From sequence record PQ615101: a stretch of DNA of 64,000 nt. One strand, written 5' to 3'. The translations under genes were made by a program, and so were the position numbers. Shown piece by piece: positions 799-8,022 of this stretch. The notes under the pieces were generated by a model that was given only the letters and a program-made list of their open reading frames with translations, was not told the DNA's origin and searched no databases. This DNA is from Shigella phage SP21535. Within the stretch, counting starts at the first letter, position 1. Each line of letters begins with the position of its first letter.

Positions 799-1065
799 TT
801 GATGTTAATATTCACCGTGGTACATTTTGGGGGAAATTACGTCGGTAAAGATGCTGGCAGCCTCCCGGCTGCCATTGAATTATTCAAAAAAGATTTTATA
901 CGTCGAATTAAATCCGGAGAAATAACTAAAGCACATTTAGAGCCTTTACGTGGAATGAGGCTAGGATGCACATGTAAACCAAAGCCGTGTCATGGTGATA
1001 TAATAGCTCATATAGTTAACCGATTGTTTAAAGACGATTTTCAAGTTGAGGACTTATGCAATTAA
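799..1065 (+). CDS. Hypothetical protein (88 aa), Cys/His-containing
   Basis: ORF ending in overlap with the nrdA start. Confidence 0.45.
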   Translation: MMLIFTVVHFGGNYVGKDAGSLPAAIELFKKDFIRRIKSGEITKAHLEPLRGMRLGCTCKPKPCHGDIIAHIVNRLFKDDFQVEDLCN

Positions 1066-3320
1066 TTAATGTTATCAAAAGTAGTGGTGTTTCTCAAAGC
1101 TTTGACCCGCAAAAAATTATTAAAGTTTTATCTTGGGCAGCTGAAGGAACATCTGTAGATCCTTATGAATTATATGAAAATATTAAATCATATCTCCGTG
1201 ATGGAATGACAACTGATGACATTCAGACTATTGTCATTAAGGCTGCTGCGAATTCTATTTCGGTTGAAGAGCCTGATTATCAATACGTAGCTGCACGCTG
1301 TTTAATGTTCGCTCTTCGTAAGCATGTTTATGGGCAGTATGAACCACGTTCATTTATTGACCATATTTCTTACTGCGTAAATGAAGGTAAATATGACCCT
1401 GAATTATTGTCAAAATATTCAGCAGAAGAAATTACATTTTTAGAATCAAAAATTAAGCACGAACGGGATATGGAATTTACTTATTCCGGGGCGATGCAAT
1501 TAAAAGAAAAATATCTAGTTAAAGATAAAACCACTGGTCAAATTTATGAAACTCCACAGTTTGCATTTATGACTATTGGAATGGCATTGCATCAAGATGA
1601 ACCTGTTGATAGATTAAAACACGTTATCCGTTTTTATGAAGCAGTATCTACTCGACAGATTTCATTACCAACTCCTATTATGGCTGGTTGCCGTACTCCA
1701 ACTCGGCAGTTTAGTTCATGCGTTGTTATTGAGGCAGGTGATTCGCTGAAGTCTATCAATAAGGCTTCTGCTTCAATTGTTGAATATATCTCCAAACGCG
1801 CTGGAATTGGTATTAACGTTGGTATGATTCGTGCCGAAGGTTCTAAGATTGGCATGGGTGAAGTACGCCATACTGGTGTTATTCCTTTTTGGAAACATTT
1901 TCAGACTGCAGTTAAATCATGCTCACAGGGTGGAATTCGTGGCGGCGCTGCTACTGCTTATTATCCTATTTGGCATTTGGAAGTTGAAAATCTTCTCGTT
2001 TTGAAAAATAACAAAGGCGTAGAAGAAAACCGCATTCGTCATATGGATTATGGCGTTCAACTGAATGATTTGATGATGGAACGATTCGGAAAGAACGACT
2101 ACATTACCTTGTTCAGTCCACATGAAATGGGTGGCGAGCTTTATTATTCTTATTTTAAAGACCAAGACCGTTTCCGTGAATTATATGAAGCCGCAGAAAA
2201 AGACCCTAATATTCGTAAAAAGCGTATTAAAGCCCGTGAACTGTTTGAATTGCTCATGACTGAACGCTCAGGAACAGCAAGGATTTATGTACAGTTCATT
2301 GATAATACGAATAACTATACTCCGTTTATTCGTGAAAAGGCACCTATTCGTCAGAGTAACTTGTGTTGTGAAATTGCTATTCCAACAAATGATGTGAATA
2401 GTCCTGATGCTGAAATTGGATTGTGTACCCTTAGCGCATTTGTGTTGGATAACTTCGATTGGCAAGACCAAGATAAAATTAATGAATTGGCAGAAGTTCA
2501 AGTTCGTGCTCTTGATAATCTGTTGGATTACCAAGGATATCCAGTTCCTGAAGCAGAAAAAGCTAAAAAGCGTCGAAATCTTGGTGTAGGTGTTACTAAC
2601 TATGCAGCTTGGCTGGCAAGTAACTTTGCTTCTTATGAAGATGCTAACGATTTAACACATGAACTATTTGAGAGATTGCAGTATGGACTCATTAAAGCAT
2701 CCATTAAGCTCGCCAAAGAAAAAGGACCTTGCGAATATTATTCAGACACTCGTTGGTCTCGAGGCGAATTACCTATCGACTGGTACAATAAAAAGATTGA
2801 CCAAATCGCAGCTCCAAAATACGTTTGTGACTGGTCGTCGCTGCGGGAAGACCTTAAGCTCTTTGGCATCCGTAATAGCACATTATCAGCACTTATGCCA
2901 TGTGAGTCATCTTCCCAAGTTTCCAACAGTACAAACGGTATCGAGCCTCCACGTGGACCAGTATCTGTTAAAGAATCAAAAGAGGGTTCCTTTAATCAAG
3001 TCGTGCCCAATATTGAACATAACATAGACCTATATGATTATACATGGAAATTAGCTAAGAAAGGTAATAAACCTTATCTTACGCAGGTAGCTATTATGCT
3101 GAAATGGGTATGTCAATCAGCTTCAGCGAATACATATTATGACCCGCAGATTTTTCCAAAAGGAAAGGTTCCAATGTCTGTAATGATTGATGACATGCTA
3201 TACGGATGGTATTATGGCATTAAAAACTTTTATTATCATAATACCCGCGATGGTTCTGGTACTGATGATTATGAAATAGAAACTCCTAAAGCAGATGATT
3301 GTTCATCCTGTAAATTATGA
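1056..3320 (+). CDS. nrdA: Ribonucleoside-diphosphate reductase alpha subunit
   Basis: 754 aa; N-terminal ATP-cone region, active-site Cys/Glu-containing core and C-terminal CxxC tail (DDCSSCKL) typical of class Ia NrdA. Confidence 0.95.
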   Translation: MQLINVIKSSGVSQSFDPQKIIKVLSWAAEGTSVDPYELYENIKSYLRDGMTTDDIQTIVIKAAANSISVEEPDYQYVAARCLMFALRKHVYGQYEPRSFIDHISYCVNEGKYDPELLSKYSAEEITFLESKIKHERDMEFTYSGAMQLKEKYLVKDKTTGQIYETPQFAFMTIGMALHQDEPVDRLKHVIRFYEAVSTRQISLPTPIMAGCRTPTRQFSSCVVIEAGDSLKSINKASASIVEYISKRAGIGINVGMIRAEGSKIGMGEVRHTGVIPFWKHFQTAVKSCSQGGIRGGAATAYYPIWHLEVENLLVLKNNKGVEENRIRHMDYGVQLNDLMMERFGKNDYITLFSPHEMGGELYYSYFKDQDRFRELYEAAEKDPNIRKKRIKARELFELLMTERSGTARIYVQFIDNTNNYTPFIREKAPIRQSNLCCEIAIPTNDVNSPDAEIGLCTLSAFVLDNFDWQDQDKINELAEVQVRALDNLLDYQGYPVPEAEKAKKRRNLGVGVTNYAAWLASNFASYEDANDLTHELFERLQYGLIKASIKLAKEKGPCEYYSDTRWSRGELPIDWYNKKIDQIAAPKYVCDWSSLREDLKLFGIRNSTLSALMPCESSSQVSNSTNGIEPPRGPVSVKESKEGSFNQVVPNIEHNIDLYDYTWKLAKKGNKPYLTQVAIMLKWVCQSASANTYYDPQIFPKGKVPMSVMIDDMLYGWYYGIKNFYYHNTRDGSGTDDYEIETPKADDCSSCKL

Positions 3321-4929
3321 TATAATTACCACAAGGATGTGGTTAACTAAGAATAACGCTATGTTTGATAATATATACAAAAACGGAAAGTTTCTTCCAT
3401 TTGGAGAAGAAAAACTTAAATCTAGACTAACAGAAGAAGATAAAGCTCTTCTAACTGATGGAATAGATTTTAAGCTCAATGTGTTCCAAATTATGGAAGG
3501 CATTGACATTAACGATCTAAAATGTGCAGTTTGTGGAAATTTCATTTCTCTGAAAACAGCAAAGAAACGTGTATTTCCAGCAACATGTAGTAAATCCTGC
3601 GCAGGGATATTTTTCGCGGATAAGAGAATTCAAAGCCGTGATACAAATTTTGGCGGAAAAGAAAAATATAAAAAATATTTGTCTGAACTTCAACACAAAA
3701 ATTCTTTAGAAAAATATGGAACAACTCATCAAAAAATTTCAAGAAATAAAAATAGAAAAACTTTAATTGAACGATATGGGGTAACGCATAATTCACAATT
3801 AGAAAGTGTGAAAGAAGCGAGAAAAGTTATAGAAAACGGTAAATCAGTTGATATTCTGCATTCTAGAAAATCTCGCGAAAAATCTAAGAAGACTAAATTA
3901 AATTGGACTGAAGAATATAAGGCATCGTTATATTCATCTATAGGAAAATCTATTAAAAATAACGGTCATATTAATCATGATATACTAGATAAAATCAATT
4001 ACAAAATTTCTATAGAAGAACTACAACAATTAGCAAATTGTTCTCGGATGACGGCTTATAGAGCTCTTTCATCCAAAGGACTAATTGACGTTCATTATAC
4101 TCAAAGTTCTATAGAGCAATTCATTTTAGATCTAGGATTTGATTGCGTAGAAACTAGAAAAATTATTCCTCCGTATGAATTAGATATTTACATTCCTGAG
4201 AAAAAATTGGCTATAGAATACGATGGAATTTATTGGCATTCTAGCGGGTCAAAGGAAACAGATAAAATTAAAGAAACTTATCATTTGATGAAGACAGAGA
4301 TGTGTGAAGCACAAGGAATTCAATTACTTCACATCTTCGAAAATGAATGGATTGATGATACAAAAAGAGAGATCTGGAAATCCATTATAAAGCATAAATT
4401 AGGATTATCAGAAAGAATACCAGCCCGAAAATGCAAAGCGCGTTTTGTTAATAAGGATGAGGCAAAAGAATTTATTAATAAGAATCATCTTCAAGGATTT
4501 TGCTCGGGAGCTCATACGTATAAAGGACTTTATTACAATAATGAGTTAGTTCAAATTATTTCTATCGGTAAATCTAGATATAGCACAGGTGATGAACTTT
4601 TAAGGATGTGTTCAAAATTGGGGGTTTGTGTTGTAGGAGGAGCCTCAAAATTATTAAAAGGAATTAATTGTCTATCTTATGGCAATCGAAGATGGTGCAG
4701 TACATTATCAAATGTTTATGACTCTGTCATGGAATTTAGTCATATCTCTGAGCCATGTTATTGGTACGTCGATAAAGGAGAGGTATTTCACCGCTCAAGC
4801 TATATGAAACATAAGCTTAAAAACAAGCTTAAAAATTATGATGATACAATAACTGAAGTAGAAAATTGTTATGCAAATGGTCTTAGAAGAATCTGGGACT
4901 GTGGAAATTTAGTTTACAGGACAAAATAA
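3295..4929 (+). CDS. Large endonuclease-like protein (Hef-like candidate) between nrdA and nrdB; start uncertain (alternative ATG at 3337)
   Basis: 530-544 aa ORF with Cys-rich N-terminal segment (CAVCGNF...ATCSKSC), repeated KYG-T-TH / RYG-V-TH modules, and a C-terminal segment YELDIYIPEKKLAIEYDGIYWHS resembling a PD-(D/E)xK / Vsr-like nuclease motif. It occupies the nrdA-nrdB slot where T-even phages carry mobile endonuclease genes. Confidence 0.6.
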   Translation: MIVHPVNYDIITTRMWLTKNNAMFDNIYKNGKFLPFGEEKLKSRLTEEDKALLTDGIDFKLNVFQIMEGIDINDLKCAVCGNFISLKTAKKRVFPATCSKSCAGIFFADKRIQSRDTNFGGKEKYKKYLSELQHKNSLEKYGTTHQKISRNKNRKTLIERYGVTHNSQLESVKEARKVIENGKSVDILHSRKSREKSKKTKLNWTEEYKASLYSSIGKSIKNNGHINHDILDKINYKISIEELQQLANCSRMTAYRALSSKGLIDVHYTQSSIEQFILDLGFDCVETRKIIPPYELDIYIPEKKLAIEYDGIYWHSSGSKETDKIKETYHLMKTEMCEAQGIQLLHIFENEWIDDTKREIWKSIIKHKLGLSERIPARKCKARFVNKDEAKEFINKNHLQGFCSGAHTYKGLYYNNELVQIISIGKSRYSTGDELLRMCSKLGVCVVGGASKLLKGINCLSYGNRRWCSTLSNVYDSVMEFSHISEPCYWYVDKGEVFHRSSYMKHKLKNKLKNYDDTITEVENCYANGLRRIWDCGNLVYRTK

Positions 4930-5604
4930 TGAGTACAGTTTTTAATACTAAACAGGTTGATGTTTTAAAAGAACCTATGTTTTTTGGTTCAGGTCTTGGA
5001 ATTGCGCGTTATGATATTCAACGACATAGGGTATTTGAAGAACTTATTGAACGTCAGCTCTCGTTTTTCTGGCGTCCTGAAGAAGTAAACTTGATGATGG
5101 ATGCTACTCAATTTAATAAGCTTCCTCAGTATCAACAAAATATTTTTACTAATAATCTGAAGTATCAATCATTACTTGATAGTATTCAAGGTCGTGCGCC
5201 GTCTGCTGTACTTATGCCATTGCTTTCAGACCCAAGCCTTGATACATGGGTTGCTACATGGACTTTTAGTGAAACTATTCACAGTCGTTCATATACTCAT
5301 ATCATGCGAAATCTTTATACTGATCCGTCAAAGGTATTTGATGAGATTGTATTAGATGAAGCTATCATGAAACGTGCTGAATCCATTGGACGTTATTATG
5401 ATGACGTTCTGATTAAAACCCGTGAATGGGAAAATGCTAAAGAATTTGTAGAACTAGCTAAAGAATCTCCTGATGCCGACTTTCGTTTAAACCGGGCTAT
5501 TAAGCAAGAAGCCGAAGCTAAACGTGCTTTAATGAAATCTCTTTACCTCTGTTTGCACGTTATTAATGCCTTAGAAGCTATTCGTTTTTATGTATCTTTT
5601 GCGT
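4929..5604 (+). CDS. nrdB: Ribonucleotide reductase beta subunit, exon 1
   Basis: Translation ends ...ALEAIRFYVSFA, the conserved NrdB helix; the frame is interrupted by the intron after gcgT at 5604. Confidence 0.85.
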
Positions 5605-5904
5605 AAAATGCGCCTTTAAACGGTAACGTTTATCGAAAACTCCTTTAATTGCTGGAAAGTCCTTTATAGGAAAACTAGCAGCCAAGGTTTTGCTTGCACC
5701 TTTAATTAGTATAATATGATTATACTTTTAAGAGGATGCACAATTGCAAAGCAAGGTTCAACGACTAGTCTTCGGACGTAGGGTCAAGCGACTCGAAATG
5801 GGGAGAATCCCTCTGGGATTGTGATATAGTCTGGTCTGCATAGTAATATGTAGCAGTTCATAAGAGAACGGGTTGAGAATTAGCGAGCTCAATCGAACAT
5901 AACG
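5605..5904 (+). other. Group I intron in nrdB, ORF-less (about 300 nt)
   Basis: Joining 5604 to 5905 restores the conserved NrdB sequence (VSFA-C-TFNFHKNMEIMEGNAK). The intron ends in G, shares core motifs with the td intron, and has no ORF of 60 aa or more. Confidence 0.8.
5688..5716 (+). promoter_or_regulatory. Middle-promoter-like element inside the nrdB intron (MotA-box-like ttTGCTTgcA, then TATAAT)
   Basis: Motif match only. It is followed by ATG and a 21-codon mini-ORF, possibly a remnant of a lost intron ORF. Confidence 0.25.
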
Positions 5905-6407
5905 GTACCTTTAACTTCCATAAGAACATGGAAATCATGGAAGGTAATGCCAAAATTATGAAGTTCATTGCACGTGATGAGCAACTTCATCTTAAAGGCA
6001 CTCAATATATTATTCGTCAACTTCAATCCGGTACTGATGGCGATGAATGGGTTAAAATTGCTCAAGAGTGTGAACAAGAAGCAGTTGATATTTTCATGGA
6101 AGTTAATCGCCAAGAAAAAGATTGGGCAGTTCATTTATTTAAAGATGGCGATGTTCCTGGATTAAATACAAATAGCATGTGGAGCTTTATTGATTACTTA
6201 ACTGTATCTCGTATGAAACAGTGTGGTCTTCCATGCCCAATTACCGATGCTCCGATTAAACATCCATATCCTTGGATTCGTGAATATCTTAATTCTGATA
6301 ATGTTCAATCCGCGCCACAAGAAGTAGAACTGTCATCTTACCTTGTTGCACAGATTGATAATGATGTTGATGATAAAGTTATGATGAGTTTTAAAAAATA
6401 CTTTTAA
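5905..6407 (+). CDS. nrdB: Ribonucleotide reductase beta subunit, exon 2
   Basis: In-frame continuation MEGNAKIMKFIARDEQLHLKGTQYIIRQL..., the radical/diiron-site C-terminal half of NrdB. Confidence 0.85.
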
Positions 6408-6412
6408 GGAGT

Positions 6413-6434
6413 GGGCCGCAAGGCCCATTTTATT
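6413..6434 (+). promoter_or_regulatory. GC hairpin (gggccgcaaggccc) plus T-rich tract immediately upstream of the denA ATG; attenuator or translational regulatory structure
   Basis: Perfect 5-bp GC stem directly between the nrdB stop and the denA start. Confidence 0.3.

Positions 6435-8022
<1,588 letters not shown>

Follow-up and report, generated by a model that had tools for sequence, protein, structure and literature searches.

The hef gene at the nrdA-nrdB junction

The stretch of DNA analysed here, 64,000 nucleotides (nt) of Shigella phage SP21535 (sequence record PQ615101), is referred to below as the window. Between its nrdA and nrdB genes lies an open reading frame (ORF) of 544 codons, which runs on the plus strand from an ATG at 3295 to a stop codon ending at 4929. 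In this maximal form, the ORF shares 26 nt with the 3' end of nrdA (1056-3320), and its stop codon overlaps the ATG of nrdB at 4929 (TAATG). We conclude with high confidence that the ORF is the free-standing homing endonuclease gene hef known from T4-like phages, and that it is the same gene as the published hef of coliphage U5. The features of the locus are collected in Table 1.

The identification is based on the following observations. The 544-codon ORF matches phrog_3339 ('homing endonuclease') from end to end with an E-value of 3e-151, PADLOC assigns the protein to 'HEase' (E 4e-5), and a large protein collection holds more than 1900 relatives at E<=1e-10; a search of NCBIfam with the ORF protein gave no match. 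Positions 3321-4928 are 99.9% identical over 1608 nt to hef of U5 (AY262133.2), whose annotation reads 'Hef, homing endonuclease' and which also lies between nrdA and nrdB. The two proteins differ at only two of 522 residues (A103S and R191K). Since both the sequence and the locus agree so closely, we regard the window gene as the published gene, more than a relative of it. The first-pass annotation of this DNA, made from the letters alone, had called the ORF probably a hef-type element and had pointed out that T-even phages carry free-standing endonuclease genes at this junction. The former statement was correct and, given the identity to U5, too cautious; the latter is illustrated by T4, where the same junction is occupied by mobE and nrdB.1. 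The end-to-end family match and the many homologues likewise confirm that the ORF is real.

The hef gene, its locus and its endonuclease activity were described in 2005 (Sandegren, Nord & Sjoberg 2005; AY262133), so the gene call itself adds little. According to a review, nrdB is cleaved by both MobE and the Hef of U5 (PMC2988022, citing Sandegren 2005). In what follows, the endonuclease activity of Hef and its nrdB target are thus taken from the literature, and the gene identity, the domain folds, the conservation of catalytic residues, the limits of the cassette and the signature of its spread come from our own analysis. The feature overlooked by the first-pass annotation, and the only lead we consider worth following, is a Mom-like domain at the C-terminus of the protein.

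Table 1. Features of the hef locus in the window, with the evidence for each
Feature	Position	Strand	Basis
nrdA, ribonucleotide reductase large subunit	1056..3320	+	ORF list; annotated nrdA in the collinear U5, N2 and T4 loci
Maximal hef ORF, 544 codons, as in the U5 record	3295..4929	+	ORF list; U5 annotation
hef cassette, replacing a 44-nt spacer	3328..4928	+	Junction comparison with PD112
Most likely hef coding sequence, 522 residues plus stop, start MFDNIY	3361..4929	+	Starts of homologues
Cys4 zinc-ribbon-like motif	3523..3600	+	Four Cys at least 90% conserved; weak Zn_ribbon match
Two YG-x-TH helical modules (residues 139-166), DUF7487-like	3709..3792	+	DUF7487 E 0.007; modelled helices
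Vsr-like / EDxHD-type PD-(D/E)xK nuclease domain (residues 272-365)	4108..4389	+	Invariant predicted catalytic residues
Mom-like GNAT-fold C-terminal domain (residues ~370-544)	4402..4926	+	
nrdB exon 1	4929..5604	+	Alignment to intron-less N2 nrdB
ORF-less group I intron of nrdB, 300 nt	5605..5904	+	Rfam RF00028; alignment to N2
nrdB exon 2	5905..6407	+	Alignment to N2

Domain structure of Hef

An AlphaFold2 model built on 120 homologues has a mean predicted local distance difference test score (pLDDT) of 93.6. Residue numbers from C77 to Y475 follow the 544-residue numbering, and the conservation figures are taken from the alignment of these 120 homologues. The N-terminal region, up to approximately residue 270, is helical and contains a Cys4 motif, the YG-x-TH modules and a segment resembling a helix-turn-helix (HTH). 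The cysteine-rich character and the repeated modules noted in the first-pass annotation are both present: each of C77, C80, C98 and C102 is retained by at least 90% of the homologues, in a region that gives a weak match to Zn_ribbon, and there are two modules, EKYGTTHQ (139-146) and ERYGVTHN (159-166), modelled as helices. The match of the module region to DUF7487 is below threshold in the window protein (E 0.007) and above it in the homologues P0116, P0011 and P0119; a match to HTH_11 in the N-terminal region is also below threshold. A Pfam search of this region found no NUMOD-type DNA-binding repeats. We presume that the modules and the Cys4-containing region bind DNA. The N-terminal regions of the homologues vary, with DUF7487, DUF723, DUF4379 and CapR all represented, as is typical of the part of a phage homing endonuclease that determines its specificity; we therefore suggest that this region chooses the target.

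The nuclease domain occupies residues 272-365 and has a Vsr-like PD-(D/E)xK fold. Such a motif had been predicted at the C-terminus of the protein; its presence is supported by both sequence and fold, and its location is in fact central. The stretch LAIEYDGIYWHS at residues 305-316 aligns with the catalytic region of I-Bth0305I, and the residues predicted to be catalytic, D297, E308 and H315, do not vary among the homologues. D196 and H213, which are catalytic in I-Bth0305I, align with D297 and H315 of Hef. D222 of I-Bth0305I aligns with I325; D323 and E327 lie nearby, and the family has an invariant H330 and K333. The assignment agrees with the published grouping of Hef-type enzymes in the Vsr-like EDxHD family (PMC3239194), and this central domain is the part of the protein that would cut DNA. 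I-Bth0305I (PMC3239194; PDB 3r3p) thus resembles Hef in being a phage homing enzyme with a Vsr-like catalytic domain and the same Asp and His positions. It differs in being intron-encoded and only 266 residues long, with NUMOD/HTH repeats and the nuclease domain at its C-terminus, whereas Hef is free-standing, carries a zinc ribbon and DUF7487-like repeats, and has an additional Mom-like domain after the nuclease.

This last domain comprises the C-terminal ~175 residues (approximately 370-544) and adopts a GNAT fold, for which the best match in the PDB by Foldseek is the Mom protein of phage Mu. A profile-profile comparison with the Mom family alignment gave a probability of 92% and an E-value of 7e-7; hhalign against the single Mu Mom sequence gave a weak match (E 0.018). 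The Pfam family Mom (PF25680) matched neither the window protein nor the isolated C-terminal domain, and its gathering score is reached by the homologues P0116 and P0057. In the profile alignment, H58, R111, R151 and Y159 of Mom correspond with H398, R437, R466 and Y475 of Hef, all of which are conserved, R437 in at least 90% of the homologues and R466 in every one. These four Mom residues are important for activity (PMC13219725, PMC7261163), and R111, R151 and S124 are essential (PMC13219725). D149, also essential in Mom, and Y59 are substituted in Hef, by N464 and L399, respectively. S124 falls in a two-residue gap immediately before the G448-G449-x-S451 loop of Hef, a part of the alignment that is uncertain. 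Because the Pfam threshold is not reached and D149, Y59 and S124 lack matching residues, we describe the domain as Mom-like without assigning it to the Mom family. Mu Mom (PDB 8bv8; PMC13219725, PMC7261163) has the same fold and the four residues with conserved counterparts, but it works on its own, using glycyl-tRNA to modify adenines in DNA, whereas the Mom-like domain of Hef is joined to a nuclease and departs from Mom at D149, Y59 and S124 as described above. Conservation across the family is highest in the nuclease and Mom-like domains, and the pair is constant in all 120 aligned homologues.

Start codon, cassette limits and expression

Comparison of the junction with that of phage PD112, which by direct inspection has neither hef nor mobE, shows that hef-positive phages carry 1601 nt (3328-4928) in place of a 44-nt spacer (TGACTCATGGACGAGTCACC...AAAATTT). 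The ATG at 3295 lies to the left of this boundary, within the last codons of nrdA, and reads AAG in eight of 14 hef carriers. Close and distant homologues share the start MFDNIY, which corresponds with Met23 of the maximal ORF at 3361, and residues 1-21 are disordered in the model of the 544-residue protein. From the ATG at 3361, hef is intact in all 14 copies compared. Taken together, the position and poor conservation of the upstream ATG, the starts of the homologues and the disorder of the first residues make 3361-4929 the likely coding sequence, encoding 522 residues. A length of 530-544 residues had been given for the ORF; the 544-codon frame does exist, but the conserved protein is the shorter one. 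In the U5 record the coding sequence begins at the upstream ATG, a codon that most carriers lack, and this start is probably wrong.

No match to the T4 late-promoter or MotA-box consensus was found in 2500-6500, sites resembling sigma-70 promoters occur no more often than in shuffled sequence, and a search for terminators around the gene was negative. The lack of late or middle promoter consensus and of a terminator fits a promoter-less cassette that is read through from nrdA. An AGGA located 8 nt 5' of the nrdB ATG falls within the 3' end of hef. Translational control by a small hairpin over AAGGA/ATG (3328-3343) was considered and dropped, as the hairpin shows no excess stability over shuffled sequence (z -0.27).

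Distribution and spread of hef

Within the phage collection, hef was found in 16 records, all with at least 99.4% identity. An empty, contiguous nrdA-nrdB junction occurs in 374 records, and sequence of the T4 mobE region in 143. Among 13 hef-positive genomes, including the window, nucleotide diversity (pi) is 0.0054 for the hef cassette, 0.028 for the adjacent 878 nt of nrdA and 0.043 for the first 512 nt of nrdB. The essential flanks thus exceed this dispensable gene five- to eightfold in diversity, which indicates that hef has spread recently. In FL18, an Escherichia phage classified as a Mosigvirus (locus L004, 1-9608), a 99.8%-identical hef sits inside a Tequatrovirus-like tract comprising td, nrdA, hef, nrdB exon 1 and the intron. 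This tract is more than 6 kb long and 94-100% identical to the window; it ends in nrdB exon 2 at approximately 6100-6230, and past this point FL18 is ~70% identical to the window. These data fit a recent horizontal spread of hef into diverged backgrounds.

Some observations count against the reading of hef as a homing element. Variable codons in hef comprise 15 synonymous and 14 non-synonymous cases, which suggests that purifying selection on the gene is weak. Polymorphism ends at 3296 and restarts at 4956, approximately 30 nt from either end of the cassette, and from its nt 28 on nrdB is strongly polymorphic among hef-positive phages; any obligatory co-conversion tract is therefore very short or eroded.

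Relatives of hef occur in several copies in other phages. Copies have been reported in Dickeya phage LIMEstone1 (PMC3296691), and Campylobacter phages of ~130 kb (for example, OQ864999 and MT863728) have matches to the Hef-like Vsr-plus-Mom-like protein at 11-12 places per genome, an unusually heavy load.

The nrdB intron and its relation to hef

A group I intron interrupts nrdB 676 nt downstream of the end of hef (Rfam RF00028, 69.1 bits against a threshold of 50). Its boundaries were mapped by alignment to the intron-less nrdB of N2, itself a hef-positive phage. The plus strand of 5605-5904 contains no ORF of 40 or more residues, in agreement with the earlier claim that the intron lacks an endonuclease gene of its own. 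In U5 the same intron is 1083 nt long with a full I-TevIII ORF. Most other hef-positive phages have an intron of 587-599 nt with a T4-like defective I-TevIII; in SG1 it is 420 nt with a shorter ORF remnant, in CJY920 it is 309 nt with no ORF, and in N2 it is absent. The window intron matches both flanks of the Lv5cm/FL12-type intron at 100% identity, and its ORF-less junction is the 7-nt sequence ACAATTG, as it is in PD112 and CJY920. SP21535 therefore pairs hef with a fully ORF-less nrdB intron that retains no leftover I-TevIII sequence. In ORF-bearing introns, ACAATTG is a direct repeat flanking the I-TevIII segment (window 5735-5750; Lv5cm, locus L006), and it is present as a single copy in the window, PD112 and CJY920; the single copy could have arisen by deletion between the repeats or could represent the ancestral ORF-free state. 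PD112, CE1 and BYEP01, none of which is among the hef matches, likewise carry an ORF-less intron, in their case of 304 nt.

An ORF-less group I intron adjoining a free-standing endonuclease gene is the arrangement of collaborative homing, which is known from psbA of cyanophages (cited in PMC2790892 and PMC2988022). The closest precedent is MobE of T4. Like Hef, it is encoded by a free-standing gene at the nrdA-nrdB junction, has nrdB as its target, and has a non-autonomous nrdB intron downstream within co-conversion range. Unlike Hef, it is a small HNH enzyme, unrelated in sequence, which nicks at nrdB nt 122-126, and its effect on intron inheritance is experimentally established. From this nick, which lies away from the insertion site, MobE drives the inheritance of the intron, an effect that the authors named trans homing and set apart from collaborative homing (PMC2790892). 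Mobilisation of the nrdB intron in trans by a neighbouring free-standing endonuclease was thus already demonstrated in 2009. The intron might hitch-hike in the same manner on repair initiated by Hef. Collaborative homing, which the first-pass annotation suggested for this locus, would in its strict form demand more, namely that the free-standing enzyme cut at the intron insertion site. Codon 42 of nrdB, at the MobE nick site, was considered as a marker of hef carriers and rejected, since Lys and Arg alleles both occur among carriers; at the nick site (window 5050-5063, nrdB nt 122-135), this codon is CGT (Arg) in the window and most carriers and AAA (Lys) in U5.

The comparative data on a link between hef and the intron are suggestive. 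The intron is present in 15 of 16 hef records and in 113 of 519 others (Fisher p 3e-9), although the records are not independent and the test ignores shared ancestry. In FL18, a single imported tract, with its end in exon 2, includes hef as well as the intron, and the 676 nt that separate the two elements are inside the co-conversion range of up to 2 kb reported for T4 endonucleases (PMC2790892). Each of these observations is awkward for the alternative that only linkage and common descent account for the proximity of hef to the ORF-less intron, with Hef playing no part in the spread or persistence of the intron. That alternative nevertheless has points in its favour: N2 has hef and no intron, the ORF-less introns of PD112, CE1 and BYEP01 occur without hef (and, in PD112, without mobE as well), the intron of hef-positive phages ranges from 300 to 1083 nt and takes heterogeneous forms, and the stretch between hef and the intron, nrdB exon 1, shows a mosaic of haplotypes among hef-positive phages. 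The same facts count against any strong version of intron mobilisation by Hef, as they mean that hef and the intron evolve largely independently and are only loosely coupled. We consider linkage alone to be a serious possibility, if one that falls somewhat short of an even chance. Occasional hitch-hiking of the intron on Hef-initiated repair appears plausible to us, with the arguments for and against it about evenly balanced.

Neighbouring elements

Some further elements of the region deserve mention. The ORF at 6411-6845, directly after nrdB, has a GIY-YIG-like character and was considered as a second homing endonuclease; this was rejected, as the gene is denA (endonuclease II), whose start differs between records to give 144 or 136 residues. 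At the other end, positions 1-164 of the window are part of a group I intron (Rfam RF00028, 50.7 bits) with its 5' end cut off; it is followed by td exon 2 at 210-524 and is thus the td intron. In the hef-positive phages Manna (L005), FL12 (L009), F26 (L012) and FL23 (L013), nrdA is split into two ORFs at ~2266-3021 by an inserted gene for an HNH-type homing endonuclease (2311-3021 in locus coordinates), an arrangement that resembles the split nrdA of Aeromonas phage Aeh1; nrdA of the window is intact.

Proposed mechanism

We suggest the following model for the hef element. A promoter-less cassette of ~1.6 kb (3328-4928), sitting in place of the 44-nt nrdA-nrdB spacer, would be translated from the ATG at 3361 into a 522-residue protein with a variable, putatively DNA-binding N-terminus, a central nuclease and a conserved Mom-like GNAT domain. 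In a mixed infection, Hef would cut the nrdB DNA of a phage that lacks hef, and recombinational repair from the hef-positive genome would copy hef, together with a flanking stretch of variable length, into the recipient. The intron, at a distance of 676 nt, may sometimes be carried along by trans homing as described for MobE; hef would not be dedicated to the intron. Within this model, the division of labour between the domains and any mobilisation of the intron are what we infer.

Role of the Mom-like domain

The model leaves room for different functions of the C-terminal domain, and we consider a structural role more likely than an active modifying one. In the structural case, the domain would be a non-catalytic module, serving either as a clamp that binds DNA or flips bases or as a dimerisation platform on which two Vsr-like domains come together to break both strands. 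Mom is dimeric (PMC13219725) and I-Bth0305I needs dimerisation to cut (PMC3239194); the Vsr-like and Mom-like domains stay together throughout the 120 homologues while the N-terminal region varies, and some of the catalytic residues of Mom are substituted. Such a module does not readily explain why the arginines specific to Mom are retained, along with a G-G-x-S loop where the cofactor would sit; this exceeds the needs of a scaffold. We regard this role as quite possible, although we would not put it at better than even.

Hef may instead be a fusion of two enzymes, in which the conserved Mom-like domain would be an active nucleic-acid-modifying enzyme, possibly dependent on aminoacyl-tRNA or acyl-CoA like Mom, that marks adenines of the carrier genome, at the Hef target or close to it, or licenses the nuclease. 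We think this improbable. A related proposal treats Hef as a single-chain element resembling a restriction-modification system, where the Mom-like domain, as an active adenine-modifying enzyme, would mark the DNA of its own phage or the target site and the nuclease would attack unmodified DNA of a co-infecting phage or of the host. The relationship to Mom in fold and profile comparison, the conserved counterparts of R111, R151, Y159 and H58, and the place of the domain among the most conserved parts of the family all speak for it. Moreover, as Iyer et al. pointed out, Mom domains of jumbo phages frequently occur in fusion with domains of the restriction-endonuclease fold, and the authors predicted that these fusions follow the logic of restriction and modification (PMC7824862). 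Set against this are the change of D149 to Asn and of Y59 to Leu, the position of S124 in an alignment gap, the failure of the window protein to reach the Pfam Mom threshold, and the multi-copy, scattered Hef-like genes (as many as 12 sites in one Campylobacter phage genome), which resemble homing and are unlike genome-wide restriction-modification. On balance, we judge a restriction-modification-like Hef to be unlikely. In the literature searched, we found no link between Hef and Mom or GNAT beyond this general remark on jumbo phages; some records of Acinetobacter phages do name a Hef homologue 'nuclease/acetyltransferase'.

Part of the interest of the locus lies in this domain: an experimentally validated homing endonuclease carries a well-conserved Mom-like domain, and the finding in 2026 that Mom depends on glycyl-tRNA makes the role of the domain testable. 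Hef reportedly cuts the DNA of its own phage in vitro; if this holds, that DNA must be protected in vivo, and a built-in modifier would explain how the carrier tolerates the enzyme. Should the domain indeed be an active modifier, it would constitute a mechanism of self-immunity new to homing endonucleases, and the Hef-like family, with its more than 1900 relatives, would be a reservoir of site-directed DNA-modifying enzymes.

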